From Eubacteriales bacterium (GTDB lineage Bacteria; Bacillota; Clostridia; Oscillospirales; CAG-272): a stretch of DNA of 64,000 bases. Location: assembly GCA_045612105.1 (NCBI GenBank), contig JAZKYL010000147.1:884-64883 (forward strand), in the 5' to 3' direction. A program made the position numbers and the translations under genes. Positions 5,014 to 35,760 of the stretch are shown one piece after another (within the stretch, counting starts at the first letter, position 1; every line of letters starts with the position of its first letter). Below the pieces are notes generated by a model. The model was not told the origin of the DNA, made no database searches, and worked only from the letters and a program-made list of their open reading frames with translations.

Positions 5014-6294
5014 ATGGAAAATTTGAGATTTAATATTCAGCTTTTCGGAGCAGGCGAGAAGGTGCTTGGCACCGAGGGTGAGATCAACACAAAGACCGGC
5101 GCTGTTGCAGAATATGCCGAGGGAGAGGGACTTTCTCCCGAGATGCGCACCTATTATTCCGATTATCTTATCGACAATGCCGAGCCTGCGCTTGTTCACG
5201 ATCGCTTTGCGCAGAAGCACAAGATCCCTGTGGGCGGTGGCAAGTCGGTTCAGTTCCGCAAGTATGATCCGCTGCCCAAGCTGACCGATCCTATTGCCGA
5301 GGGTATCACTCCCACGGGTCAGACTATAAATATGGGCATCGTCAACGCGACTGTTGCTCAGTACGGCGGTTACGTTGAGCTTACCGACCTGCTTCTTATG
5401 ACCGCCATCGACAACAATCTTTGCATGGCGACCAAGCTTCTTGGTTCTCAGGCAGGCAGAACTCTCGACACTATTTCCCGCGAGGTGCTTGTGGGCGGTA
5501 CCAACGTACAGTTTGCCGAGGGTCAGGTCAGCGCGCGTTGCCAGCTTCAGGGCGGCAAGACTGCGGGTGAAAACCACTATCTTACCGTTGATGCTGTGCG
5601 CAAGGCGGTGAGATTCCTCAAAAACCAGAACGCGGAGAAGATCGACGGCGCTTACGTGGCGATCATTCATCCCGACTGCGCTTACGATCTTATGAGCGAC
5701 CCCAACTGGAGATATCCTCATCAGTATGCCGAGCCTTCGGCTATTTTCGAGGGTGAGCTTGGCAAGATCGAGGGGGTTCGCTTCATTGAGAGCACCGAAG
5801 CCAAGGTCTTCCACGCGGAGGATTTGGCAAGTAACGCGAGAGTTCTCAAGGTGAGTGAGAAGGCGGCTGCGACATCAACGGTCAAGTTCAGCGGCGGCAA
5901 TGTTACAGCAGGTTCTCTTGTGGGCAGAGAGGTGCTTATCGGCGGTAAGAAATATTACGTTTCTGCCAACACCGCAAGCTCTATGACCCTTACTACCGAC
6001 AGCACCAAAGCAACTGCGGCAAGCGTTTCCTGTGACGTTGACACCGTGATCTATCCCGGTGAGGCGGGTAGTGAGGGCAGAGACGTTTACGCGACTCTTG
6101 TCTTCGGCGAAAACGCTTACGGCACAACGGCTTTGGCTGACGGAGGTCTTGAGCACATCGTCAAGCAGCTTGGCTCTGCCGGCTCCTCCGACCCTCTCAA
6201 TCAGAGAGCGACTGTTGGTTGGAAGGCGACCAAGGTTACCGTTCGTCTCGTTGAGGCATTTATGATCCGTATCGAGACCGCCGCGTCGGTATAA
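5014..6294 (+). CDS. phage major capsid protein
   Basis: 426 aa counted from ATG 5014 (RBS AAAGGA). Position after the scaffold and overall composition fit a major capsid. The N-terminus MENLRFNIQLFGAGE resembles a Prp cleavage site. Confidence 0.8.
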   Translation: MENLRFNIQLFGAGEKVLGTEGEINTKTGAVAEYAEGEGLSPEMRTYYSDYLIDNAEPALVHDRFAQKHKIPVGGGKSVQFRKYDPLPKLTDPIAEGITPTGQTINMGIVNATVAQYGGYVELTDLLLMTAIDNNLCMATKLLGSQAGRTLDTISREVLVGGTNVQFAEGQVSARCQLQGGKTAGENHYLTVDAVRKAVRFLKNQNAEKIDGAYVAIIHPDCAYDLMSDPNWRYPHQYAEPSAIFEGELGKIEGVRFIESTEAKVFHAEDLASNARVLKVSEKAAATSTVKFSGGNVTAGSLVGREVLIGGKKYYVSANTASSMTLTTDSTKATAASVSCDVDTVIYPGEAGSEGRDVYATLVFGENAYGTTALADGGLEHIVKQLGSAGSSDPLNQRATVGWKATKVTVRLVEAFMIRIETAASV

Positions 6295-7472: not shown

Positions 7473-10400
7473 ATGAAAAAGACACAGTTTACAGCTGTTT
7501 TGCTGTCACTTTGCTTCGTTTTATTGGCTTTTGCCATAGGCGTTTTTGCGGTTGACGGTGAAATAGTCAGCGGAGACGTGAGCGGCGATGGGGTAGTGGA
7601 TATTAAAGACCTTATCCTATTGCGTCAGTATCTCGCTAATTTGAACTATGATACAGGCATTTCTTCGGTTGAGGTAAGTGCCGGTGCGGATGTGGATGGC
7701 AACGGTTTGGTTCGTCTTCACGATCTTTATCTTTTGAGAGAATATCTTGTAGATAAGGATTTTGATGACGATACAGAGGATACCGAGAGTGAGGAAACTA
7801 CGGAGGCTGAAACCGAGACGGAGCCCGAAATCAAATATAGCGAGGGGCTTGAATTTATTTCAAACGGCGACGGCACTTGCTACTTAAACGGAACGGGAAT
7901 TTGTACTGATACCGACATTGTTATTCCGCCGGTTTCTCCTGCGGGGGACAGGGTTACAAGGATCGGTGAAATGCTAATTATGGGCACCAATGTTACGAGC
8001 GTAGTGATTCCCGACAGTGTCACAATGATTGACACTAACGCGTTTCAAGGTTGCGAGAGTCTTACGAGTGTAACCATTGGAGACGGTGTTACAAGCATTG
8101 GTGATTCTGCGTTCAGAGGTTGCTCGAGTCTTACGAGCATCGTTTTCGGTGAAAACAGTCGGATCACAAGCATTGGTTATTCTGCGTTCTCGGGTTGCAC
8201 AAGCCTTACGAGCATAACTATCCCCGACAGTGTTACAAGCATTGGGGAGCATGCATTCAGTTGCTCGGGTCTTACGAGCATGACGATACCTAATAGTGTG
8301 ACGAGCATTGGTAATTATGCATTCTATGATTGCTCGGGTCTTGCGAGCATAACTATCCCCGACAGTGTAACAAGCATTGGTGGTGATGCGTTCTACGGTT
8401 GTTCGGGTCTTACGAGCATCGTTTTCGGTGAAAACAGTCAGATCACAAGCATTGGTTATTCTGCGTTCTCGGGTTGCACAAGCCTTACGAGCATAACTAT
8501 CCCCGACAGTGTTACAAGCATTGGTGATTATGCGTTCTCGCATTGCTCAAGCCTTGAGAGCATAACGATTCCCGACAGTGTAACAAGCATTGGTGATTTG
8601 GTGTTCATGAACTGTTCAAATCTTGAGAGTGTAACTATTGGTAGCGGTGTTACAAGCATTGGTATTTCTGCGTTCCAAGGTTGCACAAGTCTTACGAGTG
8701 TCAAAATCGGCAGTGGTATCATAGTTATTGAGTGGGCGGCATTCTCCGGTTGCTCAAGTCTTGAGACGGTATATTATAATGGAAGCAGGGCGTGTTGGTT
8801 GAAGATCAGCATTGATTCGGGTAACGAATACCTAACGAATGCGAATATAATTTTTGATATCGAATGCGTTTTCGGTGACTGGGTCACTGTGAAGGGTGCG
8901 AGCTGCACCGAGGACGGTGAGATGGAGCGCGTTTGCGAGTGCGGCGAAAAGGAGACTCAAACAATAGCGGCATTGGGTCATACTGAGGTTATTGACGCGG
9001 CGGTTGCGGCGACTTGTACCGAGAGCGGTTTGACCGAGGGTAAGCACTGTGGTGTTTGCGGTGAGGTTCTTGTTGAGCAAGAAGTTATTGCAGCACTTGG
9101 TCACACCGAGGTTGTTGACGCGGCGGTTGCGGCGACTTGTACCGAGAGCGGTTTGACCGAGGGCAAGCACTGCTCGGTTTGCGGTGAGGTTCTTGTTGAG
9201 CAAGAAGTTATTGCGGCACTTGGTCACACCGAGGTTATTGATGCGGCGGTGGCGGCGACTTGTACCGAGAGCGGTTTGACAGAAGGAAAGCACTGTGGTG
9301 TTTGTGATGTAGTTCTTGTTGAGCAAGAAGTTATTGCGGCACTTGGACACACCGAGGTTATTGACGAGGCGGTAGCGGTTACTTGTACCGAGAGCGGTTT
9401 GACAGAAGGAAAGCACTGTGGTGTTTGCGATGTAGTTCTTGTTGAGCAAGAGGTTATTGCGGCACTTGGTCACACTGCGGGTCAAACTGTTGTAGAGAAT
9501 AACGTAGCACCCGATTGTGTAAACAACGGTTCTTACGACAACGTAATTTACTGTACCGTGTGTGGCGATGAGATTACCAGAAATACAGTTACTGTTGACG
9601 CGCTGGGTCACGATGAGGTTATTGACGCGGCGGTTGAGGCGACTTGTACCGAGAGCGGTTTGACCGAGGGTAAGCACTGTGGTGTTTGTGATGTAGTTCT
9701 TGTTGAGCAAGAAGTTATTGCGGCACTTGGTCACACTGAGGGTTCTGCGGTAATGGAGAATCAGGTATCCTCTACTTGTGTTGTAAACGGTGGATACGAT
9801 AGCGTGGTCTACTGTTCGGTATGTACAACAGAGATTTCGAGAACGTCTGTGACACTTCCTTTGGCGGAGCATACGGTTGTTGACCGTGAATGTACCGTAT
9901 GTGATTATATTGAGCCCAGCGTAGGCTTGGCATATACGTTAAGTGACGATGGCACTTACTATTCCGTTAGCGGTAAAGGTGAGTGTACGGATATGATAAT
10001 CGTTATTCCCGACACATACAACGGTTTGCCGGTTAGAGAAATCGGAAAGCTTGCGTTCAATAATTTCTCGGGTACGACCGTGCATATTCCCGCATCGGTA
10101 TCCATGATAGGAGAAAGAGCTTTCAGTGGTTACTCAAGTAATCTTTCCTCTATTCAGGTGGCGGTAGACAACCCATATTACAAATCCGTGAACGGCACGG
10201 TTTACAGCAAGGACGGTTCTGTGCTTGTTTGCTATGCACCGAACAATCCCGCAAAGACATTCACACTTCCGGATAATGTAACAGAAATCGGTGCGTACGC
10301 TTTTAGTTATGCGGATGTGCTGACAAGATTTGTAACCACAAAGAACAGCTCTCTTACAAAGATCGGTGATTGGGCATTTGAAGAAGCTACTTACATCAGT

Positions 10401-13400
10401 GAGTTTGTGCTTCCCGATACTATATGCGAATTGGGAGAGGGTGCTTTTTCCAGCTGTAAGTCGTTGGAGCAGATCCCGAATCTCGGACAGGTAACCGAAA
10501 TTGCTCCGTATCTATTCAATGACTGTAACTGGGAGCTTCACGAGGTCGTGATCCCCGATGGAATTACAACGATTGGGGAGTGGGCTTTCAGTTATTGTGA
10601 TGAACTTGAATTCGTATGGATTCCTACGAGTGTAACGTACATAGGTGATTCTGCATTTGATAACGCTTTTGGCTATACAACGATAGAATATCTCGGAACC
10701 CGTGCGGAGTGGGATAGTGTTACAAAGCATTACTATTTTGCCAAAAACTATTTGGTTCGTTGTGCCGGAGAGATGAGTGAGAATCTTTCCTTCACGCTTT
10801 CCTCTGACGGTACGTATTACATACTTAGCGGAATCGGAACGTGCACAGACAAGGATCTGTTGATTCCTTCGAGCTACAACGGAAAGCCTGTTAAGGAAAT
10901 TGCAAGCGGTGCTTTCAATTCTACTTTGGTAAGAGTTACGATTCCCGACAGTGTTGAAATAATCGGAAGCCAGGCGTTCTACTATAACTATTATCTCACC
11001 CGCGTAGAGCTTGGCAATGGAATCAAAAGCATTGGTGATTCTGCGTTCTACGGTTGCTCGGGTCTTACAAGTATAACTATACCCAATAGTGTAACGAGTA
11101 TAGGTAATTCTGCGTTCTTTAATTGCTCAAACCTTACAAGTGTAACTATCGGAAACAGTGTCACCAGCATTGGTTCTTCTGCGTTCGAGGGTTGCTCGGA
11201 TCTTGAAAGTATTGTTGTCGAAAATGGTAATTCCAAATATCACAGTGCAGGGAACTGTATAATAGAGACCGAAAGCAAAACGCTTATACTCGGTTGCAAA
11301 AACAGTGTAATTCCCACGGACGGCAGTGTAACAAGCATTGGTGATTCTGCGTTCGACGGTTGCTCGGGTCTTACGAGCGTAGTGATTCCCGACAGTGTAA
11401 TAAGCATTGGTAATTATGCGTTCTATAATTGTGATAACCTTACGAGCATAACTATACCGGAAGGTGTAACAAGCATTGAAAGTTGCGCCTTTGCTCACTG
11501 CGACAGTCTTGTTAGCGTGACTGTGCCGCGCTCGGTCACCTTTATCGGCTGGAATGCATTTTACTCTTGTGATAATCTGACCATTTACTGTAACCGTGTG
11601 GAGGCGCATCCGAATTGGGATAGTAGTTGGAATTCCTCAAATTGTCCTGTAGAATGGCTTACTCCCAGCGAGGGACTGGAATATATATGTCACGGCTCGT
11701 ATTACTACGTAAGTGGCGTTGGTGACTGCCGCTATGATTCGGTTATCGTTATTCCTTCTACCTATCAGTCACTTCCTGTTATCGGAATTGAGTCTTATGC
11801 GTTTGAATACTGCTGGGCAGAGGAGATAATTCTTCCCGATTCTATCCTATATATTGAAGATTATGCGTTCTATTATGCATCGAGCCTTGTGAGCATTGAC
11901 ATCCCTTCGAGTATCATTTACATAGGTGCATATGCTTTTGATGGTTGCTACTATCTTGAAAAGGTTAATTTTGAGGACACGAGCTGCTGGTATGTGAACG
12001 GTGCTTCGATGTCTGCTGAAATGTCCGATCCTGTTTTGATGGCGGAGTATCTGACCTATACGTACTCGAACAGCACATGGAATCATCACTACAATGCATA
12101 TGGCTATGAGAATCCATATTTCATTAGTTTTCCGACCTGCACGGAAGACGGTTTGGTAGAGTATTATTTCGACTGTTTTTATTGTTACGAAAGGGTGGCA
12201 ACCTATCGTAGTATTATTCCGGCGACGGGACATGAAGGTACGTATGAATACGCACAAGAAAATTACACACCTCCTACATGTACCGTAGCCGGCGGATATG
12301 ATGGCATCTATAATTGCTATAGTTGCGGTGAATATGCATATACGGAATACGTAACCGTTCCCGCAACCGGTCACACCGAGGTTATTGATGCACAAGTTAA
12401 TCCTACTTGTACTACCGGTGGACTGACACAAGGAAAGCACTGTTCGGTTTGCGAGGTGATTATCGTACCTCAATATGAGATCAATGCGCTTGGACATACC
12501 TACAATTCGGTTACAACTATGCCTTCTTGTACGGAACAGGGTTACACAACACACACCTGTTATTGCGGTTATACGTACATTGATTCCTACGTTGACGCAC
12601 CGGGTCACGATGAGGTGATTGACGCGGCGGTTGAGGCAACTTGTACCAAGAGCGGTCTTACCGAGGGCAAGCACTGTGGTGTTTGCGATGTAGTTCTTGT
12701 TGAGCAAGAGGTTGTTGCGGCATTAGGTCACACATATAATGATGAAAATACCTGTATCGCTTGTGGAGATTATAAGGATAAGGGAGTTGTGTTTACTCTT
12801 TCGGGTAATGAGTACAGTGTGACGGGTTATACCGGAAGTGCAACCGAGATTATCATTCCTTCCACGTATAAGGGTTATCCTGTTACGAGCATTGGCGATA
12901 CTGCGTTCTATGGTTGCGCTGATATTAAGAGTATCACGATTCCCGAGGGAGTCACGAATATTGGCGAAAGTTCGTTCTACGGATGCATTAGCCTGAGGAC
13001 TATTTCAATTCCAAATAGTATAATTGATGTTGGTGATTCTGCATTCAGAGATTGTACAAAGCTTGCCTATAAATATTACGAAAACGCATGCTATCTCGGT
13101 AATGAAGCAAATCCTTACGTAGTACTTTTAAAAGCAGTAAGTAGTGAAATTCTTTACTGTGACGTTCATGAAAATACGAAGGTCATCTATAGTGGTGCGT
13201 TCCAGTGGAACGGAAGACTTGTTAGCGTTCAAATTCCGAACAGTGTCACGAGCATTGGTTCCTATGCTTTCTACTATTGTAGTAATATGGGTCAAGTTAG
13301 TATTCCCAGAAACGTGACGAGAATTGGCAATTGCGCATTCACTCATTGTTTAATACAAACTGTCAATATCGGAAACAAGATGACGACCATTGGGTATGCT

Positions 13401-15242
13401 GTGTTTGCTGAATGCGAAAGACTTACCAAAGTCACAATCGCAAGTAGTGTTACAAGTATCGAGAAGGAGGCTTTCGAAGGATGCACAAACCTTACGAGCA
13501 TCACAATCCCCAGTAGTGTAACAAGTATTGATGGAAGCGCATTCTCGGGATGCACAAACCTTACGAGCATCACTGTACAGAGTGGCAACACCAAATATCA
13601 CAGTAGAGGTAACTGCTTGATAGAAACTGCAAGCAAGGAATTGATATTAGGATGCAAAAACAGTGTTATACCCACAGATGGTAGTGTCACAAGCATTGGT
13701 GAATCTGCGTTCGAAGGTTGCTCGGGTCTTACGAGCGTAACAATTCCCGACGGTGTTACAAGCATTGGTAATTCTGCGTTCTCCGGTTGCTCGGGTCTTG
13801 AGACGGTATATTATAATGGATGCAGAGGGAGTTGGTCAGGGATCAGCATTGATTCGAATAACGGATATCTAACGAATGCGAATATAATTTTTGCCATCGA
13901 ATGCGTTTTCGGTGACTGGGTAACGACAAAGAATGCGACCTGCACCGAGTACGGTGTGATGGAACGCGTTTACGAGTGCGGTGAAAAGGAGACTACGGTG
14001 ATAGCAGCACTTGGACACACCGAGGTTGTTGACGCGGCGGTTGCAGCAACTTGTACTGAGAGCGGTTTGACTGAGGGTAAGCATTGCTCGGTTTGCGGTG
14101 AGGTGCTTGTTGAGCAGGTTGTTGTGGCACCTGGACACACCGAGGTAATTGACGCGGCGGTGGCGGCTACCTGTACCGAGAGCGGTTTGACAGAAGGCAA
14201 GCACTGTGGTGTTTGCGATGAGGTTATTGTGGCGCAGGTCGTTGCCCCAGCACTGGGACACAACGTAGGTGCAGACGGTTTTTGTGCTAAGTGTGACGAG
14301 CCTTTATGTGCTACCTCGGGCATATCGTATTCGATCTCCGAGGACGGAACGTATGCGATAGTGTCTGGCTATACCGGTTCCTATACCCGTGTAGTGATAG
14401 CGAGTGAATATGAAAGTCTTCCGGTAAAAATGATCGGTAACCGTGCTTTTTATGATAATGACAGCATCACAAAAGTACATATCCCCGACAGTGTCACGAG
14501 CATTGGTTCTTATGCGTTTGCGTTTTGCTCAAAATTCACAAGTATAACCATCGGAAATGGTGTCACAAGTATTGGGGATGGTGCATTCTACTATTGCTCG
14601 GGTCTTACGAGCATAACGATTCCCGACAGTGTAACAAGCATTGGTTATAATGTGTTCTACTATTGCTCGGGTCTTGAAAGTATTATTGTCGAAAATGGTA
14701 ATTCCAAATATCATAGTGCGGGGAACTGTATAATAGAAACCGAAAGTAAGACGCTTATACTCGGTTGCAAAAACAGTGTGATACCCACGGACGGCAGTGT
14801 AACAAGCATAGGTAATTATGCATTCAATAATTGTGATGATCTTACGAGCATAACTATCCCCGACAGTGTGACGAGCATTGGTGATGATGCGTTTTACTGG
14901 TGCTCGGGTCTTACGTGCGTTGTTTTCGGTGAAAACAGCCAGCTTACAAGCATTGGAAGTAGTGCGTTCAGCGGTTGCTCGGGTCTTACGAGCATAACGA
15001 TTCCCGACGGTGTAACAAGCATTGATTCTTTTGCGTTTAGCTATTGCCGTGGCCTTGCGAGCATAACAATCCCCGATAGTGTCACAAGCATTGGTTATTC
15101 TGCTTTCAACAATTGCGACGGTCTTGAGACGGTATGTTATACGGGAACCGAGGAAGAATGGGCGGCTATCAGCAAGGGTTCTTCTAATGATCCCCTCACT
15201 AGTGCCGTAATTATCTGCAACTATGTTCCCGAGGGGCAATAA
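7473..15242 (+). CDS. giant secreted cell-surface protein: signal peptide, N-terminal dockerin, BspA-type leucine-rich repeats, Cys-containing 41-aa repeats
   Basis: 2589-aa ORF with AAGGAG RBS and signal peptide MKKTQFTAVLLSLCFVLLAFAIGVFA. The dockerin (nt 7572-7751) has two Ca-loop motifs, DVSGDGVVDIKD and DVDGNGLVRLHD. There are many SVTSIGxxAFxGCSxLTSITIPD repeats of about 23 aa. Confidence 0.9.
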   Translation: MKKTQFTAVLLSLCFVLLAFAIGVFAVDGEIVSGDVSGDGVVDIKDLILLRQYLANLNYDTGISSVEVSAGADVDGNGLVRLHDLYLLREYLVDKDFDDDTEDTESEETTEAETETEPEIKYSEGLEFISNGDGTCYLNGTGICTDTDIVIPPVSPAGDRVTRIGEMLIMGTNVTSVVIPDSVTMIDTNAFQGCESLTSVTIGDGVTSIGDSAFRGCSSLTSIVFGENSRITSIGYSAFSGCTSLTSITIPDSVTSIGEHAFSCSGLTSMTIPNSVTSIGNYAFYDCSGLASITIPDSVTSIGGDAFYGCSGLTSIVFGENSQITSIGYSAFSGCTSLTSITIPDSVTSIGDYAFSHCSSLESITIPDSVTSIGDLVFMNCSNLESVTIGSGVTSIGISAFQGCTSLTSVKIGSGIIVIEWAAFSGCSSLETVYYNGSRACWLKISIDSGNEYLTNANIIFDIECVFGDWVTVKGASCTEDGEMERVCECGEKETQTIAALGHTEVIDAAVAATCTESGLTEGKHCGVCGEVLVEQEVIAALGHTEVVDAAVAATCTESGLTEGKHCSVCGEVLVEQEVIAALGHTEVIDAAVAATCTESGLTEGKHCGVCDVVLVEQEVIAALGHTEVIDEAVAVTCTESGLTEGKHCGVCDVVLVEQEVIAALGHTAGQTVVENNVAPDCVNNGSYDNVIYCTVCGDEITRNTVTVDALGHDEVIDAAVEATCTESGLTEGKHCGVCDVVLVEQEVIAALGHTEGSAVMENQVSSTCVVNGGYDSVVYCSVCTTEISRTSVTLPLAEHTVVDRECTVCDYIEPSVGLAYTLSDDGTYYSVSGKGECTDMIIVIPDTYNGLPVREIGKLAFNNFSGTTVHIPASVSMIGERAFSGYSSNLSSIQVAVDNPYYKSVNGTVYSKDGSVLVCYAPNNPAKTFTLPDNVTEIGAYAFSYADVLTRFVTTKNSSLTKIGDWAFEEATYISEFVLPDTICELGEGAFSSCKSLEQIPNLGQVTEIAPYLFNDCNWELHEVVIPDGITTIGEWAFSYCDELEFVWIPTSVTYIGDSAFDNAFGYTTIEYLGTRAEWDSVTKHYYFAKNYLVRCAGEMSENLSFTLSSDGTYYILSGIGTCTDKDLLIPSSYNGKPVKEIASGAFNSTLVRVTIPDSVEIIGSQAFYYNYYLTRVELGNGIKSIGDSAFYGCSGLTSITIPNSVTSIGNSAFFNCSNLTSVTIGNSVTSIGSSAFEGCSDLESIVVENGNSKYHSAGNCIIETESKTLILGCKNSVIPTDGSVTSIGDSAFDGCSGLTSVVIPDSVISIGNYAFYNCDNLTSITIPEGVTSIESCAFAHCDSLVSVTVPRSVTFIGWNAFYSCDNLTIYCNRVEAHPNWDSSWNSSNCPVEWLTPSEGLEYICHGSYYYVSGVGDCRYDSVIVIPSTYQSLPVIGIESYAFEYCWAEEIILPDSILYIEDYAFYYASSLVSIDIPSSIIYIGAYAFDGCYYLEKVNFEDTSCWYVNGASMSAEMSDPVLMAEYLTYTYSNSTWNHHYNAYGYENPYFISFPTCTEDGLVEYYFDCFYCYERVATYRSIIPATGHEGTYEYAQENYTPPTCTVAGGYDGIYNCYSCGEYAYTEYVTVPATGHTEVIDAQVNPTCTTGGLTQGKHCSVCEVIIVPQYEINALGHTYNSVTTMPSCTEQGYTTHTCYCGYTYIDSYVDAPGHDEVIDAAVEATCTKSGLTEGKHCGVCDVVLVEQEVVAALGHTYNDENTCIACGDYKDKGVVFTLSGNEYSVTGYTGSATEIIIPSTYKGYPVTSIGDTAFYGCADIKSITIPEGVTNIGESSFYGCISLRTISIPNSIIDVGDSAFRDCTKLAYKYYENACYLGNEANPYVVLLKAVSSEILYCDVHENTKVIYSGAFQWNGRLVSVQIPNSVTSIGSYAFYYCSNMGQVSIPRNVTRIGNCAFTHCLIQTVNIGNKMTTIGYAVFAECERLTKVTIASSVTSIEKEAFEGCTNLTSITIPSSVTSIDGSAFSGCTNLTSITVQSGNTKYHSRGNCLIETASKELILGCKNSVIPTDGSVTSIGESAFEGCSGLTSVTIPDGVTSIGNSAFSGCSGLETVYYNGCRGSWSGISIDSNNGYLTNANIIFAIECVFGDWVTTKNATCTEYGVMERVYECGEKETTVIAALGHTEVVDAAVAATCTESGLTEGKHCSVCGEVLVEQVVVAPGHTEVIDAAVAATCTESGLTEGKHCGVCDEVIVAQVVAPALGHNVGADGFCAKCDEPLCATSGISYSISEDGTYAIVSGYTGSYTRVVIASEYESLPVKMIGNRAFYDNDSITKVHIPDSVTSIGSYAFAFCSKFTSITIGNGVTSIGDGAFYYCSGLTSITIPDSVTSIGYNVFYYCSGLESIIVENGNSKYHSAGNCIIETESKTLILGCKNSVIPTDGSVTSIGNYAFNNCDDLTSITIPDSVTSIGDDAFYWCSGLTCVVFGENSQLTSIGSSAFSGCSGLTSITIPDGVTSIDSFAFSYCRGLASITIPDSVTSIGYSAFNNCDGLETVCYTGTEEEWAAISKGSSNDPLTSAVIICNYVPEGQ
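8970..9872 (+). repeat. in-gene tandem array 1 of the 41-aa (123-nt) repeat ALGHTEVIDAAVAATCTESGLTEGKHCGVCGEVLVEQEVIA
   Basis: About seven units with a 123-nt period (starts near 8970, 9093, 9216, 9339, ...). Several are nearly identical at the nucleotide level. Two are diverged, longer variants. Confidence 0.85.
12219..12773 (+). repeat. in-gene array 2 of the GH...C-x10-C-x2-C repeat (diverged units)
   Basis: Units begin ATGHEG, ATGHTEVIDAQV, ALGHTYN, APGHDEVIDAAVEATCTKSG and ALGHTYND. Confidence 0.7.
14004..14310 (+). repeat. in-gene array 3 of the 41-aa Cys repeat
   Basis: Two near-identical units (GHTEVVDAAVAATCTESGLTEGKHCSVCGEVLVEQ) plus one degenerate unit. The flanking sequence 13780-14000 duplicates 8740-8960. 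Confidence 0.75.
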
Positions 15243-15251
15243 ATGATTTTG

Positions 15252-15274
15252 GGCGGCTTTCGAGCCGCCTTTTT
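15252..15274 (+). terminator. rho-independent terminator of the giant gene
   Basis: GGCGGCT (15252-15258), loop TTCG, AGCCGCC (15263-15269), then TTTTT. Confidence 0.8.
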
Positions 15275-15304
15275 CAAATTTTGATTTGTCGGAGAGATAA
15301 AATA

Positions 15305-15486
15305 ATGAAATGTTTCGCAAGCGAAACATTTCATGATGCTTCGCATCATGAAATGTGCTACGCACATGAAATGAAATTCGCCTTCATTCATATGCGCTTC
15401 TGCGCATTTCATGTTCCCAAGGAACATTTCATGGCGCAGCCATTTCATTTGCCGAAGGCAAATTTCATTGCGCACCTTTGGTGCGC
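15305..15486. repeat. tandem array of nine short, non-identical stem-loops with constant ATG...CAT stem bases and GAA/TTC linkers
   Basis: Hairpins at 15305-15334, 15327-15355, 15353-15367, 15371-15387, 15392-15407, 15411-15427, 15431-15443, 15447-15463 and 15470-15486. Spacing is about 18-23 nt. Confidence 0.8.
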
Positions 15487-15516: not shown

Positions 15517-15545
15517 TTGACATGGGGAGAAAATGGTGATATAAT
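15517..15545 (+). promoter_or_regulatory. sigma-A promoter for the membrane-protein gene
   Basis: TTGACA at 15517-15522, 17-nt spacer, TGaTATAAT with the -10 box at 15540-15545. Confidence 0.6.
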
Positions 15546-15581: not shown

Positions 15582-17261
15582 ATGAAGAAGATGAGTTTGA
15601 GGGGTAAAGTTATTTTATCTGTTATTTCGGGTATTGTTTTTACGCTTTTATTCTTTTATTTTGCGGTTCCTGCCATCAATCCCTCGTATCCCGGGTTTTG
15701 GGTGAGTCTTACGCTTGTGATTTTGTCGTTTGCGTATCCTTTTCTCTTTACAAAGGGTGAAGGTAAGACTGTAAAGAGAGAAAAGAAGACAAAGAGCGGT
15801 GTTATCAACATTCAATTTGATATGAACGGGTCGAATCTCAACAAGATAGTGGTTATTTTAGTTGCGATCCCGATCGTTATAATGATACTTGGCAATATTA
15901 TTTCGTCCACGGTATTCAACGCAAAGGGTTACGCGGCGGTCATCGAGGTGACCGAGGCGGATTTTGCCACCGATATGAAGGAGACGAATGAGGTCACCAA
16001 CATAGCTCTCATGGACGGTGACTCGGCGAGATATCTTGGCAACAAGACTCTTGGAAGTCTTTCGCATATGGTTTCCCAATACGTGGTATCCGACAACTAC
16101 ACTCAGATCAACTACAAATACACGCCCAAGAAGGTTGCAAACCTTGAGCACGCAGACTTTTTCAAGTGGTTTGCCAATATGGAGGAGGGTGTACCCGGAT
16201 ACGTTATGGTCGATCCTGTAAATAACAGCGCGGAGTACGTTGAGCTGAAAAAGCCCTTAAAGTACGTTGACAGCGCGTATTTTGGCGACGATCTTATGAG
16301 AAAGCTTCGTTTTGACTATCCTACAAAGATATTTGACGATTTTATCAGCTTTGAGGTTGATGACGAGGGAAATCCTTACTACATCATCACCTGTCTTAAG
16401 CCCAAGGTATTTCCTTTTGGCGCAATGGACGTTTCCGAGGCGATAATTTTCGATCCTTGCACCGGCGAGAGCCAGCTTTACGCGGTTGAGGATGTTCCCG
16501 CTTGGGTTGATGCTGTCTATTCGGGTGATCTTGCAGAGGAAAAGTACAACTGGTACGGCACTCTGTCTGGTGGCTTTATCAACAGTATTATCGGAAACAA
16601 GGACTGCAAGCAGACCACCGACGATTACGGTTACATCGTTATCGGTGACGACGTTTGGTATTACACGGGTGTTACCTCGGTGACGGCGGACGAGTCCAAC
16701 ATTGGATTTATCATTTCAAATGCCAGAACGGGAGAATACAAATATTATCCTGTAATCGGTGCTGAGGAGCACGGTGCTATGAACGCGGCTGAGGGTGAGG
16801 TTCAGGAAAAGGGATACGTGGCTTCCTTCCCGTCTCTTGTTAACGTTTCGGGTCAGGCATCTTACATTATGGTATTGAAGGATGCGGCAGGCTACGTTAA
16901 GCTTTACGCTCTCGTTAACGTTGAGCATCCCAGTGTTGTGGCTACAGCTCCCAATCAGGCGGAGGCTATGAAGGCTTACAAGGCGCTTATGGTTGAGAAT
17001 GGCATTACTGAAGAGGAAAAAGCACCCGAGGTTGAGACGAAGAATGCGGAGATCACGGTTGCCGAGATCAAAACTTATACGGTTGACGGAAACACGGTAT
17101 TCTATATCGTTGGTGACGACGGCTACTATTACAAGGGCCTTCTTCGCGACGATGAGTCTTTGATATTCGTATCGGTTGGTGACAAGCTTTCGGTCGAGTA
17201 TTCGGAGGGTGACGGTAACAAGATAAGAATTATTAAGAATTTTGACACGGTTCAGGAATAA
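15582..17261 (+). CDS. hypothetical membrane protein (N-terminal TM helices, large extracytoplasmic domain)
   Basis: 559-aa ORF with three hydrophobic segments in the first ~115 aa, followed by a soluble domain. No family recognised. Confidence 0.8.
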   Translation: MKKMSLRGKVILSVISGIVFTLLFFYFAVPAINPSYPGFWVSLTLVILSFAYPFLFTKGEGKTVKREKKTKSGVINIQFDMNGSNLNKIVVILVAIPIVIMILGNIISSTVFNAKGYAAVIEVTEADFATDMKETNEVTNIALMDGDSARYLGNKTLGSLSHMVSQYVVSDNYTQINYKYTPKKVANLEHADFFKWFANMEEGVPGYVMVDPVNNSAEYVELKKPLKYVDSAYFGDDLMRKLRFDYPTKIFDDFISFEVDDEGNPYYIITCLKPKVFPFGAMDVSEAIIFDPCTGESQLYAVEDVPAWVDAVYSGDLAEEKYNWYGTLSGGFINSIIGNKDCKQTTDDYGYIVIGDDVWYYTGVTSVTADESNIGFIISNARTGEYKYYPVIGAEEHGAMNAAEGEVQEKGYVASFPSLVNVSGQASYIMVLKDAAGYVKLYALVNVEHPSVVATAPNQAEAMKAYKALMVENGITEEEKAPEVETKNAEITVAEIKTYTVDGNTVFYIVGDDGYYYKGLLRDDESLIFVSVGDKLSVEYSEGDGNKIRIIKNFDTVQE

Positions 17262-17327: not shown

Positions 17328-18410
17328 ATGGCTACTGTTTTTGATTATTTGAAATGGAGAGGTGACCTGTCCTTTTCCGATGTCAGGGTAAACGAGGTCG
17401 ACAGTATTATCTTCGCTATGCTGACTTATATTGATTTCGGCGAGCTTTGCGGAGCTGATGAGCTGCTTCTTCGTGAGTCGGCTGTCGATTATTGCAGTGA
17501 CGGGAAGTATGACAGTGTAAATCTTGGGCTTATTATGCCTTCAAAGCAGATAAACAAGATGTTTTGCGACGCGGCAACGTCGAGGCGGTTTGGCGGCGTG
17601 AGGGTGACCGATTTTGTTGAGGAGACCAGTGACGAGGACGGTTATCAGTTTTCAGCGGTGACCTTTCATCTGTCGGGAAAGCAGATGGTGCTTGCTTTCA
17701 GGGGTACGGACGACTCTATTGTGGGTTGGAGAGAGGATTTTTGTCTTTCTTTTCTTGACGAGATACCCGCCCAGAGGATGGCGGTTGAGTATCTTGAGAG
17801 GATGGCGGCGAAGTATCCCGACGAGAGGATATATCTGACGGGGCATTCGAAGGGTGGAAATTTGGCGGTCTATTCGGCTGTGAAATGCTCGGAGTTAATT
17901 GCTTCGAGGATAGTTCGAGCTTACTGCAACGACGGTCCCGGGCTTACGGCTGAGACGGTTGGATCCCACAATTTCAAAAAAAGACAGAGAAAGCTGACGG
18001 TTTTGATACCGCAATCGTCCTATATTGGCATTATGTTTGAAAAGGGCGAGAAATACAAGGTGGTCAAGTGCCGCGGTGTGGGTGTTTTTCAGCACGATCC
18101 TTATTATTGGGAGCTTGAGGGTCCCGAGTACGTTAAGCTGCCCGAGCTTTCCAAGTGGGGCAAGCAAAACGAGCAGAAATTCCGCGTGGGAATGGCTAAG
18201 ATGACGGCTGACGAAAAGCGGGAGTTTGTGGAGACCTTTTTCTCGCTGGTTGAGGCAACGGGGGCGAGGACTCTTTCGGAGTTTGCCGACGGTGGGCTCA
18301 GACGGATAGTGTCGATCATCAAGGGATACGGAGGGCTTGACAAGCAGAAGAGGGAAATGATGCTGGCGATCATTCTGAGGCTGCTTGATATTAAGAAGCA
18401 TAAAGGGTGA
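17328..18410 (+). CDS. Mbeg1-like (DUF2974) alpha/beta hydrolase, lipase-like
   Basis: 360 aa with GAGGAGG RBS. It has FRGTDDSIVGWREDF and the nucleophile elbow GHSKGGNLA typical of DUF2974. Confidence 0.8.
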   Translation: MATVFDYLKWRGDLSFSDVRVNEVDSIIFAMLTYIDFGELCGADELLLRESAVDYCSDGKYDSVNLGLIMPSKQINKMFCDAATSRRFGGVRVTDFVEETSDEDGYQFSAVTFHLSGKQMVLAFRGTDDSIVGWREDFCLSFLDEIPAQRMAVEYLERMAAKYPDERIYLTGHSKGGNLAVYSAVKCSELIASRIVRAYCNDGPGLTAETVGSHNFKKRQRKLTVLIPQSSYIGIMFEKGEKYKVVKCRGVGVFQHDPYYWELEGPEYVKLPELSKWGKQNEQKFRVGMAKMTADEKREFVETFFSLVEATGARTLSEFADGGLRRIVSIIKGYGGLDKQKREMMLAIILRLLDIKKHKG

Positions 18411-18474
18411 TTATCAAGCCTATCGGCGCGATAAAAGTGAAGAACGAAGAGTTAAAAGTGAAGAATTTTGGTTG

Positions 18475-18500
18475 AAAACCGCCCCCTGGCGGTTTTCTTC
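18475..18500 (+). terminator. rho-independent terminator
   Basis: AAAACCGCC (18475-18483), loop CCCT, GGCGGTTTT (18488-18496), then CTTC. Confidence 0.65.
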
Positions 18501-18517
18501 ATTGTTAGATAAATTGC

Positions 18518-18870
18518 GATTTAACGGGGACGCGGGGGGACGCGCGCCTCCGGCGGCGAGCTTTTTGAAAAAAGCTCGGCAAAAACTTCCCCCAAAAAAA
18601 GGGAAAAATTTCACCAATGATGTCATTTGAAACCATATTGATTTGAACCGAAGTTTATCTTCTATCGTGTTTCGGGTGTATAGGAAACTCTTTTGATTAA
18701 AGAGTTTCCAACTAAACTTGCAACACGATAGCAGTGGAGCTTTGATCAAAATTCTAACGGTTTCACAAGATGAAATGGCTACACGTTTAACCATTTTTCA
18801 GGGAAGCTTTTTGGCTCCACCTTTTTCTCGAAAAAGGTGGAACGCGTCTCCCCCGCGTCCCCGATAAATC
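18518..18870. repeat. 353-bp non-coding element bounded by imperfect terminal inverted repeats (MITE-like or large structured RNA)
   Basis: Left end GATTTAACGGGGACGCGGGGGGACGCG (18518-18544). The reverse complement of the right end (18843-18870) is GATTTATCGGGGACGCGGGGGAGACGCG. Internal perfect hairpins lie at 18558-18577, 18683-18709 (nested inside 18662-18671/18722-18731) and 18817-18840. Confidence 0.45.
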
Positions 18871-18892
18871 AAAATTTGAAACAATCTAAAAA

Positions 18893-20110
18893 TTATTTTC
18901 CCTTGATTCGCTTCCAATACTCCTCGGCTGCCTTCTCGGTCTTATTATCGCCGTAGAAATAGTATTTCTTATTTTTCAGATCATCGGGAAGATACTGCTG
19001 CTCAACGTATCTGTTCGGATAATCGTGGGGATATTTATAACCCTTGAAAAGCGGACTTTGAAGGTGCACAGGAGGAGTGATTCCCTTTCCTGCTCTGACG
19101 TCCTCAAGGGCAGCGTCAACCGCCAAATGCTGGGTGTTGGATTTTGGCGCAGTCGCAAGCATTATTGCCGCGTTACCGAGCGGTATTCTCGCCTCGGGAA
19201 GACCAAGCTCCCTTGCGGAATCGCAACAAGCCTTGACTATCACTGCCGCCATTGGATATGCCAAACCTATATCCTCGCTCGCAATCACCTGCAAACGACG
19301 GCAAAGCGAGATAATATCCCCCTGCTCCACCATTTTCGCAACGTAAAATGCCGCCGCATCGGGATCGGAGCCGCGAATCGACTTTTGCAGACAACCCAAC
19401 ATATCGTAATGCACGTCGTCGTTGTAATTGCCCACACCGTAGTTGAACTGATCTGCGTCCGCTGGTGTAATCTCATTATCTGCGGCAAAATATGCATTCT
19501 CAAAAAGTCCGATGGATCGGCGAACATCGCCCCCCGCCGCCTTTGCAATATACTCTGAAGTCGCTTGCGTTACAGTCTTTTCGGTACCGTTCTCCTTATT
19601 GAGATAATCAAGTGCCTTGTAAAGCATCTTTGCGCACTCGCTCGGCTCAACCGTCTTGAATTCAAAAAGTGACGAACGGGATATGATAGCGTTATAAATA
19701 TAAAAATGAGGATTTTCTGTGGTGGACGCAATAAGAGTCACTCTTCCGTCCTCAATATATTCAAGAAGAGCCTGCTGCTGCTTTCGGTTAAAATACTGTA
19801 TCTCATCAATATACAAAAGAGTTCCGTTTGAACCGAAAAGACTTGCAGAGCCGTTTAAAACCTCCTTAACCTCGGAAAGCGATGCACTTGTGGCATTCAG
19901 CTTATGAAAATCCATCCCCGATTGCTTCGCAATGATCGAAGCCGCCGTAGTTTTTCCCGTACCGGGAGGGCCGAAGAAGATCATATTGGTGATACGACCG
20001 CCCTCCATCATGCGCCGAATAACTCCGCGTTCACCGAAAAGATGCTTCTGACCTGCTATGTCGTCTATTGTCTGCGGACGCAAAAGATCCGCCAACTGTG
20101 CGTTTCTCAT
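18893..20110 (-). CDS. rarA: replication-associated recombination protein A (AAA+ ATPase)
   Basis: 405 aa with Walker A FFGPPGTGKTT, LLYIDEIQYFNRKQQ, and a MgsA/RarA-type C-terminal domain. Confidence 0.9.
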   Translation of the reverse strand: MRNAQLADLLRPQTIDDIAGQKHLFGERGVIRRMMEGGRITNMIFFGPPGTGKTTAASIIAKQSGMDFHKLNATSASLSEVKEVLNGSASLFGSNGTLLYIDEIQYFNRKQQQALLEYIEDGRVTLIASTTENPHFYIYNAIISRSSLFEFKTVEPSECAKMLYKALDYLNKENGTEKTVTQATSEYIAKAAGGDVRRSIGLFENAYFAADNEITPADADQFNYGVGNYNDDVHYDMLGCLQKSIRGSDPDAAAFYVAKMVEQGDIISLCRRLQVIASEDIGLAYPMAAVIVKACCDSARELGLPEARIPLGNAAIMLATAPKSNTQHLAVDAALEDVRAGKGITPPVHLQSPLFKGYKYPHDYPNRYVEQQYLPDDLKNKKYYFYGDNKTEKAAEEYWKRIKGK

Positions 20111-20122
20111 TTTCTTTATCCT

Positions 20123-21049
20123 TTATTCAAAAACTCCCGCAGAAAGATATCTCTCTCCCGTATCGGGTAAAATTACAACTATGTTTTTTCCTTGATTCTC
20201 GGCTCTCTCCGCAATCTTTTTCGCCGCGCAAATTGCAGCTCCCGAAGATATTCCAACCAGTATTCCTTCGGTCTTGGCAATTTCTCTTGTGTATTCATAT
20301 GCCTCGTCGTCGGTGACCGTAATTATCTCATCAACAACCGAAAGATCAAGATTTTCAGGCAAGAATCCCGCCCCGATGCCTTGTATCTTGTGCGCTCCGA
20401 CTCTGCCTTCGGTAAGATATGGCGATGACGCAGGCTCAACGGCGACGACCTTGATCTTCGGATTCTTTTCCTTCAAAAATCTACCCGTTCCGCTGACCGT
20501 TCCGCCGGTTCCCGCGCAAGAAATAAAAATATCCACCTCTCCGTCGGTGTCATTCCATATTTCGGGACCCGTGGTCTTATAATGAGCGATAGGATTTGCG
20601 GGATTGTCAAACTGACCCGCAATTATCGCATTAGGGATCGATCTCACAAGCTCCTCCGCCTTCTCGATCGCGCCCTTCATACCGAGCGAGCCATCGGTCA
20701 GCACCAACTCGGCACCGTAAGCCGTCATAAGCATTCGCCTCTCTTTTGACATAGTGTCGGGCATAACGATAATAGCTTTATATCCCTTTGACGCACATAT
20801 CGCCGCAAGTCCAATGCCTGTATTTCCCGACGTAGGCTCGATTATCGTGCTTTCCGCCGTTAATCTTCCCTCTCTCTCGTACTCCTCGATCATCTCGAGA
20901 GCAACTCTGTCCTTGATCGAGCCTGCGGGATTGAACAACTCAATTTTAGCAAGAAGCTTTGCTGAAAGCTCGTATTTATGTTCAAAATTTCTCAGCTCAA
21001 GTAACGGCGTTCTGCCAATAAGAGCCGAAAGTGAATCATATATCTTCAT
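20123..21049 (-). CDS. cysK: cysteine synthase A (O-acetylserine sulfhydrylase)
   Basis: 308 aa with the PLP-enzyme motifs NPAGSIKDR and EPTSGNTGIGLA, and GTGGT. It ends 12 nt upstream of the rarA start codon, so the two are probably co-transcribed. Confidence 0.92.
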   Translation of the reverse strand: MKIYDSLSALIGRTPLLELRNFEHKYELSAKLLAKIELFNPAGSIKDRVALEMIEEYEREGRLTAESTIIEPTSGNTGIGLAAICASKGYKAIIVMPDTMSKERRMLMTAYGAELVLTDGSLGMKGAIEKAEELVRSIPNAIIAGQFDNPANPIAHYKTTGPEIWNDTDGEVDIFISCAGTGGTVSGTGRFLKEKNPKIKVVAVEPASSPYLTEGRVGAHKIQGIGAGFLPENLDLSVVDEIITVTDDEAYEYTREIAKTEGILVGISSGAAICAAKKIAERAENQGKNIVVILPDTGERYLSAGVFE

Positions 21050-35640: not shown

Positions 35641-35691
35641 TCCGACCATAACAAAAAGGAGGCGTAAAGCCTCCTTTTTGTTATGGTCGGA
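35641..35691 (-). terminator. terminator hairpin downstream of tRNA-Pro; one arm includes the tRNA 3' end
   Basis: 23-bp stem 35641-35663/35669-35691 with loop GTAAA. Confidence 0.7.
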
Positions 35692-35760
35692 GTGACGGGA
35701 TTCGAACCCACGACCTCTTGGTCCCGAACCAAGCGCACTACCAAACTGTGCCACACCCCG
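35684..35760 (-). tRNA. tRNA-Pro (anticodon CGG), CCA encoded
   Basis: The reverse complement folds as a cloverleaf. Acceptor CGGGGTG/CACTCCG, D stem GCAC/GTGC, anticodon stem CTTGG/CCAAG with loop TTCGGGA, T loop TTCGAAT. 77 nt. Confidence 0.9.

Follow-up and report, generated by a model that had tools for sequence, protein, structure and literature searches.

A hairpin array in a gut Clostridia genome as a two-armed Gut-1 (RF01706) element

Between a gene for a giant leucine-rich-repeat protein and the promoter of the next gene, a 64,000-nt stretch of DNA from an Eubacteriales bacterium (the whole of which is called the window here) carries a chain of short, back-to-back hairpins whose stems all differ and whose linkers repeat. 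What is this array, and in what form would it work? A sequence-only reading had described nine stem-loops at 15305-15486, lying between the terminator of the giant gene and the promoter of the next, with linkers that switch from ATGAAATG on the left to CATTTCAT on the right and so give the array a global dyad. All nine stem-loops are present and a repeat finder recovers the same inverted repeats; the placement is borne out by the sequence, and the switch of linkers is real. That reading recognised no known element in the array, which in fact belongs to an existing Rfam family, Gut-1 (RF01706).

Identity, parts and setting of the array in the window

An Rfam scan of the whole window, a check that the sequence-only reading had suggested, returned three matches, namely one tRNA and two copies of RF01706, both of the latter above the family's gathering score of 50 bits. 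The plus-strand copy (15303-15377; 50.1 bits, E = 6.2e-09) is an arm of hairpins joined by (A)TGAAAT(G), referred to as the open arm; the minus-strand copy (15401-15470; 57.6 bits, E = 7.9e-11) consists of UGAAAU-joined hairpins whose plus-strand linkers read ATTTCA, and is referred to as the enclosed arm. In the model alignment the array fits the Gut-1 consensus of three consecutive variable hairpins with (G)UGAAAU linkers. Since one match lies on the plus and the other on the minus strand, the global dyad is a pair of converging Gut-1 units, and the array is one complete Gut-1 element with its two units facing each other. The family is already catalogued, and the copy in the window is not a new kind of element.

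Gut-1 was described in 2010 from human-gut metagenomes, with 43 examples, and is reported there solely from human-gut sequences; the seed alignment of that description already includes examples with an inverted second arm in the flank and a GTGATAT linker variant is visible (Weinberg et al. 2010, PMC2864571). Rfam types RF01706 as 'Gene; sRNA'. Within the literature searched, this was the sole paper found to mention RF01706 or Gut-1, and neither a function nor a cultured host was found there. The 77-nt Rfam model covers a single arm, and in related loci it scores the enclosed one, as at 15401-15470 in the window; comparison with those loci shows that the model represents half of an element of ~150-200 nt.

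The leftmost stem-loop is a 14-bp perfect palindrome, ATGAAATGTTTCGC-AA-GCGAAACATTTCAT (15305-15334), which the repeat finder also reports; it is terminator-like on the minus strand, where TATTTTATCT follows it and the terminator scan lists 13 pairs. The linker at 15329-15334 is inverted relative to the rest of this arm. A 13-bp palindrome, CATTTCATGATGC-TTC-GCATCATGAAATG (15327-15355; inverted repeat I4, 100% complementary; core ATGATGC-TTC-GCATCAT), overlaps the first, and the two are therefore mutually exclusive alternatives. The hairpin ATGTGC-TAC-GCACAT (15351-15365) follows and is a helix in the Rfam alignment. The fourth stem-loop of the sequence-only reading, ATGAA-ATTCGCC-TTCAT (15371-15387), is a weak hairpin of 5 bp with a 7-nt loop and is probably not conserved; its position is occupied by the 5' strand (in plus coordinates) of a long-range closing helix, AATGAAATTCGCC (15370-15382), whose 3' strand is GGCAAATTTCATT (15457-15469). 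Twelve of the 13 positions of this helix pair, the exception being a C.A on the plus strand that is a G.U on the minus strand.

On the side of the enclosed arm there are four hairpins, for which the alignment to the Rfam model is part of the evidence: ATGCGC-TTCT-GCGCAT (15391-15406, also called by the terminator scan), ATGTTCC-CAA-GGAACAT (15411-15427), ATGGC-GCA-GCCAT (15431-15443) and ATTTGCC-GAA-GGCAAAT (15447-15463). Because the GGCAAAT arm of the last is shared with 15457-15469, this hairpin is a local alternative to the closing helix, and an equivalent pair of alternatives is present in homologues. Beyond the Rfam matches lies a flanking hairpin, GCGCACC-TTT-GGTGCGC (15470-15486), which is followed by no T-run on either strand and is not called by the terminator scan.

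Both the linkers and the folding of the array stand out from chance. The motif CATTTCATG occurs five times in the 64-kb window, every time within the array (expected 0.87; five or more in 0 of 100 shuffles). For a 197-nt segment the folding energy is -78 kcal/mol on the plus strand (shuffle mean -47, z = -7.7) and -86.5 kcal/mol on the minus strand (shuffle mean -52, z = -8.1). A terminator scan over 600 nt gave 3 sites against 0.8 +/- 1.0 in shuffles, which is no clear excess; the earlier view that the array is not a plain terminator stack is probably right. Two open reading frames of 79 and 91 aa that run over the array were rejected as coding sequences; they are by-products of the palindromes, since the indels and stem swaps of homologues preserve no reading frame.

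The gene to the left (7473-15242, plus strand) encodes a 2589-aa protein with a dockerin at its N-terminus and 13 BspA-type LRR_5 stretches (Pfam Dockerin_1 and LRR_5), and its intrinsic terminator (15252-15274, plus strand; GGCGGC-TTTCGA-GCCGCC, then TTTTT) forms the left flank of the element. On the right, a sigma-70-type promoter directed away from the element (15517-15545, plus strand; TTGACA-17 nt-TATAAT with TG, 12/12 matches in the promoter scan) precedes a gene for a 559-aa protein without a Pfam match (15582-17261, plus strand). The same scan found no convincing promoter within or upstream of the array. Neither a PF05635 gene nor a tRNA gene, the two neighbours that recur elsewhere, lies beside the array in the window, whose sole tRNA gene, for tRNA-Pro(CGG) (35684-35760, minus strand), adjoins no Gut-1 array. 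Relative to the usual flanks the element is flipped here, with its enclosed arm toward the promoter and not the terminator, so that orientation relative to the flanks is not strict.

The neighbouring proteins match proteins of Ruminococcaceae and Clostridia MAGs, and over 5,000 homologues of the 559-aa protein occur in MAGs of gut Clostridia. Exact look-ups of the window protein, and of a hit with 100% identity to it, gave no match. The array is absent at the orthologous loci, in which the 559-aa protein is 90, 88, 85 and 78% identical. These loci retain the promoter of the 559-aa gene, so the promoter does not require the element, which was either gained in the lineage of the window or lost in the others. 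An Mbeg1-like/lipase gene (17328-18410, plus strand) follows the 559-aa gene in the window and in the three closest relatives (85-90% identity), and a pectate-lyase-like gene follows the 559-aa orthologue instead in the 78% relatives. Cumulative GC skew has its maximum at ~19-20 kb (window region 18000-21000), and gene strand switches from plus to minus between 18410 and 18893, beside an MgsA/RarA-type AAA+ gene; this may mark a replication terminus or a mere change of gene strand.

Conservation and two-arm architecture of related arrays

A scan of a genome collection for three ATGAAAT linkers gave at least 120 loci, about half of them unrelated tandem repeats, and at least ~70 real arrays are found among the matches listed. 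Nearly all of these arrays are in Clostridia/Oscillospirales MAGs (Acutalibacteraceae, Oscillospiraceae and 'Eubacteriales'), and they come from the guts of humans, goats, sheep, deer and horses, so that their source MAGs share the gut habitat of Gut-1. Several contigs carry two arrays and some MAGs have several array contigs, which indicates that the element is multicopy. A metagenome scan for GTGATAT linkers also gave at least 120 loci, ~88% of which are unrelated tandem repeats, with at least 14 GTGATAT arrays among the matches listed. Two linker-pattern scans of viral contigs produced chance or coding-repeat matches only, among the matches listed; a phage origin was set aside for want of a true array there, which is a weak negative.

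The arrays among the matches listed have the same linkers and different yet complementary stems, and stem-specific subtypes recur across species with compensatory changes. Stems are 98% Watson-Crick in the ~70 arrays among the matches listed, and loop sequences vary. The covariation that the sequence-only reading claimed does not follow from the window, as differing stems within one sequence are insufficient, and does hold among the homologues compared; for the local hairpins the compensatory support consists of complementary stems across the ~70 arrays listed. The existence of these homologues bears out the suggestion of a conserved structured single-stranded element.

The order of the arms is fixed: TGAAAT precedes ATTTCA (convergent) in all 44 two-arm elements among the matches listed, with no divergent case, and the same order is found at 3/3 loci chosen by an unrelated protein query (PF05635). 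Moreover, in 40 of the 44 two-arm elements among the matches listed, against a chance of ~1% each, the distal end of the second arm (for instance, GGCGGATTTA) is the complement of a segment that immediately follows the last TGAAAT (TAAATCCGCC). The variants of this closing helix include CCGCC/GGCGG, CCACC/GGTGG, CCGTC/GACGG, TTCGCC/GGCGAA and GAATC/GATTC. Ten of its 14 pairs are changed on both sides, in a test that is partly circular because the partner was found by complementarity; RNAalifold arrives at this helix independently when given 35 arms in a plain MAFFT alignment, and it marks 7 of 11 pairs as compensatory. The long-range helix covaries, and it encloses one arm. It competes with the local hairpin that uses the same strand.

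The linkers are invariant within an element. Two-arm elements with TGATAT linkers (among the metagenome matches listed) have ATATCA in the second arm and a closing helix of the form TATATTCGCC/GGCGAATATA, and this joint switch from TGAAAT/ATTTCA to TGATAT/ATATCA, with the closing helix present, implies that linker identity changes in concert. The outermost stem pairs are likewise constant per element: the ATG...CAT stem base that the sequence-only reading took as constant is indeed so here and in one subgroup (AT-G...C-AT), and others use ATC...GAT or ATA...TAT (AT-C...G-AT or AT-A...T-AT). Given these constant outer pairs, the truly unpaired linker may be GAA (or GAT) alone. Taken across the arrays, the linkers look like the selected part of the element.

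Linker spacing ranges from 16 to 28 nt (SD 3.1) and has no peak at multiples of 10.5. An iteron or operator array on double-stranded DNA is unlikely, given this unphased spacing and the palindromic spacers of arbitrary sequence, and the multi-site platform proposed earlier is disfavoured as a reading of double-stranded DNA, its stems being variable yet palindromic. CodY sites, cre sites, omega-protein heptads and ECF -35 half-sites were dropped as candidates, since spacing and palindromic spacers do not suit them. Loop-loop or loop-linker pairing between the arms, judged by eye, was inconsistent and was also dropped.

Several loci (numbered with L) depart from the common layout. At L168 (5989-6250), a TGAAAT array with four linkers leads straight into five CGATAT-joined hairpins of like orientation, so that one locus contains two linker types. 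The arms are 100-490 nt apart in L228 (1617-2247), L213 (5002-5290) and L226 (1087-1320), and the insert between the arms in L228 includes tandem 'ttatcgctactt..' repeats; such separated arms look like terminal inverted repeats around an insert. L153 (1100-2500) has a gene for a prepilin-like protein of 140 aa between two identical arrays of four linkers each, which are ~980 nt apart, in a region rich in 'gtcattc(t/c)gagcg(a/t)agcg..' repeats.

Genes and signals beside Gut-1 elements

In most two-arm elements among the matches listed, a bidirectional intrinsic terminator lies beside the enclosed arm. A tRNA gene is found within 400 nt of ~24 of the 44 two-arm elements listed, and in all but one of those ~24 it lies on the side of the enclosed arm and points into the element; at related loci, a tRNA gene with its terminator immediately precedes the Rfam-sense unit. 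The opposite side often has a sigma-70-type promoter that points outward and starts where the last linker ends. Under a single fixed criterion applied to the ~70 arrays among the matches listed, such promoters number 17 outward and 1 inward.

The gene served by the outward side encodes a PF05635 protein of 115-122 aa in 12 of the 44 two-arm elements listed (E = 2.7e-24), and every PF05635 gene in the fetched DNA (12/12) adjoins an array. PF05635 is the 23S rRNA intervening-sequence protein family, a four-helix bundle first known from intervening sequences. A less biased test, with three PF05635 loci reached by protein search, gave the same arrangement at 3/3: tRNA, terminator, Gut-1 dyad, TTGAAA-17-TATAAT, PF05635 gene. 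Besides PF05635, no protein family, recombinases and transposases included, recurs among the flanking open reading frames of the arrays listed.

The PF05635 gene stands directly after a dyad with its tRNA and terminator at L426-L440, L137, L171, L196 and others. Many PF05635 homologues are on contigs of 0.5-1.5 kb, which suggests that the gene or its surroundings break assemblies, for example as a repeat. The reading frames after the same PF05635 gene differ by sample (62 and 58 aa; 116 and 148 aa; five of 51-71 aa; seen at L426 2850-3700, L427 2590-4070 and L432). A repeated segment, 'agcaagtcccatccTGAAATttg..gggacttga', is similar to the 3' end of the tRNA beside it, and L427 has a duplicated PF05635 3' end together with a 3' remnant of a tRNA. 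Taken together, these features of L426, L427 and L432 have the appearance of cassettes being turned over, or of integration at the tRNA. At L201 and L203, arrays flank a gene segment containing PF05635. In L197 (1157-1741) a tRNA-Leu gene lies between two Gut-1 dyads, the second partly duplicated, and L137 carries a glycine riboswitch aptamer at 5771-5850 (RF00504, 56 bits), with a Gut-1 dyad and a tRNA-Ser gene ~300 nt away.

Single-arm arrays (L141, L134, L156, L209 and L232) occupy 3'-UTR positions, with UGAAAU in the sense of the upstream gene. That of L134 comes just after a BspA-type LRR gene that shares a ..NYVPE ending with the LRR gene of the window.

Working form, rival readings and known systems

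Whether the element works as RNA or DNA, and on which strand, can be approached through the polarity of its stems and loops. Isolated stem mismatches, read in the TGAAAT sense, comprise 6 G.T and 15 A.C among ~1,200 pairs of the arrays listed, and such a near-absence of G.U pairs is unusual for an RNA family. Fold energies show higher hairpin stability in the ATTTCA sense in both arms (88 versus 20), which is opposite to Rfam's orientation. The TGAAAT-sense loops TTC, TTT, TAC and TGC are, in the ATTTCA sense, loops such as GAA, GTA and GCA with a closing C-G pair; in that sense, and in both arms, GNA triloops closed by C-G make up about half of the loops of 3 nt, and none are found in the opposite sense. 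Hairpins with C-GNA-G triloops, such as GCGAAGC, are exceptionally stable mini-hairpins in DNA. The same loop polarity in both arms makes the arms true mirror images, with no strand favoured throughout; a single transcript would thus carry one favourable and one unfavourable arm. Wobble pairs in the closing helix point to one strand in some subgroups and to the other strand in others. A common subtype hairpin, CCUCAC-UCC-GUUCGG (at L177, L185, L186, L189, L203 and L240, among others), keeps a tandem U.C/C.U mismatch that is a tandem G.A on the other strand, a sign of some specific structural feature or of a preferred strand. Overall, the pattern fits an element that has to fold whichever way it is transcribed, or in each of the two DNA strands, and fits a small-RNA gene on one strand less well.

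The explanation we prefer, with moderate confidence, is a structured RNA whose hairpins hold the constant linkers single-stranded, probably made as the tail of neighbouring transcription units. A folded single-stranded nucleic acid, most likely RNA, would be the working form of Gut-1. The short G+C-rich hairpins would be interchangeable structural spacers that expose a constant linker 4 to 8 times, as GAA in UGAAAU and as its complement in the AUUUCA of the other arm. The linkers would be the functional sites, either read by a sequence-specific factor or pairing with the complementary linkers of the other arm; one such pairing, that of the closing helix, is conserved and has a local hairpin as its competitor. 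Any neighbouring transcription unit that reaches the spacer would yield the element as its tail, and the dyad would let the element work in either orientation. The near-lack of inward promoters, the bidirectional terminators alongside and the near-perfect stems lead us to infer that it is not a free-standing small-RNA gene. The family identity, the fold, the covariation, the dyad rule and the genomic context are results of the analysis; the RNA nature of the acting molecule, the choice of strand, the role of the linkers as active sites and the nature of their binder belong to the proposal. Against it stand the scarcity of G.U pairs, the mirrored loop polarity, the greater hairpin stability in the ATTTCA sense, the conflicting wobble pairs of the closing helix and, in the window, the flipped orientation relative to the usual flanks.

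Two rivals deserve most weight. A free-standing, trans-acting small RNA, the class to which Weinberg et al. (2010) assigned Gut-1, would act as a scaffold or sponge whose repeated UGAAAU sites titrate a multimeric RNA-binding protein, and would accord with the Rfam typing, with repeated single-stranded motifs between hairpins, with a terminator after the element on one side in most loci (in the window, the 14-bp palindrome followed by UAUUUUAU ends the minus-strand reading) and with stem-specific subtypes conserved across species. We consider it rather unlikely, since inward sigma-70-type promoters number 1 in the 70 arrays listed, against 17 outward, with none in the window, and since the Rfam-sense unit directly follows a tRNA gene and its terminator; the absence from close relatives at the locus of the window and the several copies and subtypes per genome also speak against it.

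The other, a serious rival to the RNA reading that we still judge improbable, is a site in single-stranded DNA, such as the template of the lagging strand, where the folded hairpins would be recognised by a recombinase, transposase or nuclease specific for structure. Gut-1 would then be mobile or mark cassette boundaries in the manner of REPIN or attC, with a possible link to the PF05635 gene. Near-perfect palindromic stems with almost no G.T speak for such a site, as does the two-fold symmetry that follows from C-GNA-G triloops of the same polarity in both arms. Patchy, multicopy presence among close relatives is in line with it, as are the adjacency to tRNA genes (~24 of the 44 two-arm elements listed) and to PF05635 genes (12 of the 44, plus 3/3 independent loci), the many PF05635 homologues on contigs below 1.5 kb that suggest an assembly-breaking repeat, and the arrays that flank a PF05635-containing segment at L201 and L203. 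Against these stand the lack of a recombinase or transposase family recurring among the flanking reading frames, copies that are not near-identical, unlike recently mobile repeats, subtypes conserved across species with compensatory changes, and stems of 5-7 bp that are too short for cruciform extrusion; no target-site duplications were seen.

A back-up bidirectional terminator or insulator is much less probable still. Its AUUUCA-sense units would each be a G+C-rich hairpin with a U-rich tail, so that polymerase arriving from either side would encounter weak terminators, three or four of them, once it reached the far arm, and the greater ATTTCA-sense stability of both arms suits this, as do spacers that lie by strong terminators, upstream of promoters and after tRNA genes. 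Three units in the window were called terminator-like, but not clearly above shuffles (3 versus 0.8 +/- 1.0). The TGATAT/ATATCA variant lacks the U-tract and keeps the architecture, which makes a pure terminator stack unlikely; strict conservation of the hexamer and the closing helix would be unnecessary for termination, and the fixed order of TGAAAT ('>') then ATTTCA ('<') is left unexplained. A functionless one-off of slippage or palindrome amplification, which the sequence-only reading had kept as its alternative and which the lack of the array in the orthologous spacer of three relatives might favour, is refuted by dozens of arrays of the same architecture in many species, with compensatory changes.

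A more specific proposal, which we advance tentatively and regard as doubtful, is that Gut-1 would be a two-fold symmetric module of ~150-200 nt, read once per strand, that separates stable-RNA genes or terminators from small cassettes whose first gene is an Avd-like PF05635 gene; it might be a partner of an oligomeric PF05635 protein through ~five linkers, or the cis site of an undescribed form of cassette insertion or exchange by chains of GNA-loop mini-hairpins in single-stranded DNA.

Set beside known systems, Gut-1 shares with REP, BIME and REPIN elements multicopy extragenic hairpins near terminators or between transcription units, inverted pairs of units and patchy presence. In REP elements the stem sequence is conserved within a genome and a GTAG-type motif is read by a RAYT transposase; Gut-1 stems, in contrast, differ from unit to unit, from copy to copy and even along one contig, and constancy is limited to the 6-nt linkers and the outermost stem pairs. 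The sequence-only reading had likewise recognised no REP or BIME-type element. No RAYT-like gene or recurrent transposase occurs in the flanks of the arrays listed. That reading also excluded CRISPR, in which direct repeats of ~21 nt or more separate unique non-palindromic spacers with cas genes nearby, and rightly so: the constant part here is 6-9 nt, the 'spacers' are palindromic and no cas-like neighbours were found.

CsrB and RsmZ, which titrate a protein through repeated GGA, are similar in repeating a short motif many times on a scaffold of hairpins, but the Gut-1 motif is UGAAAU and sits between hairpins rather than in loops, Gut-1 has an inverted second arm, and no promoter was found for it. 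The type III antitoxin arrays (ToxI, CptI) are also tandem structured RNA units, and the AAAU within the Gut-1 linker resembles a ToxN cleavage motif; ToxI has near-identical repeats of 34-45 nt followed by the toxN gene, whereas Gut-1 units all differ and no adjacent toxin gene was found. The likeness to integron attC sites lies in a site that is defined by structure, varies in sequence, keeps short inverse core motifs and is found where small gene cassettes adjoin; attC acts as folded single-stranded DNA. An attC is one long imperfect hairpin with R''/R' cores (GTTRRRY), extrahelical bases and an intI integrase alongside, whereas Gut-1 is a chain of mini-hairpins, and neither GTTRRRY cores nor an integrase were found among its neighbours.

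The closest comparison is with the Gut-1 model itself, from which the inverted second arm, the closing helix and the fixed arm order are absent, as are the links to tRNA terminators and PF05635 genes. The finding in the window, one more copy of a known family, is ordinary. Gut-1 has been an orphan structured-RNA candidate since 2010, and related loci now place the motif in named Oscillospirales/Clostridia genomes. The catalogued motif emerges as half of a larger element of fixed architecture, whose recurrent neighbours are tRNA terminators and PF05635 genes; this extended architecture and these links are the parts worth following, as they turn an unexplained motif into one that can be tested for the strand that is made, the reader of the constant linker and a four-helix-bundle protein as its partner.
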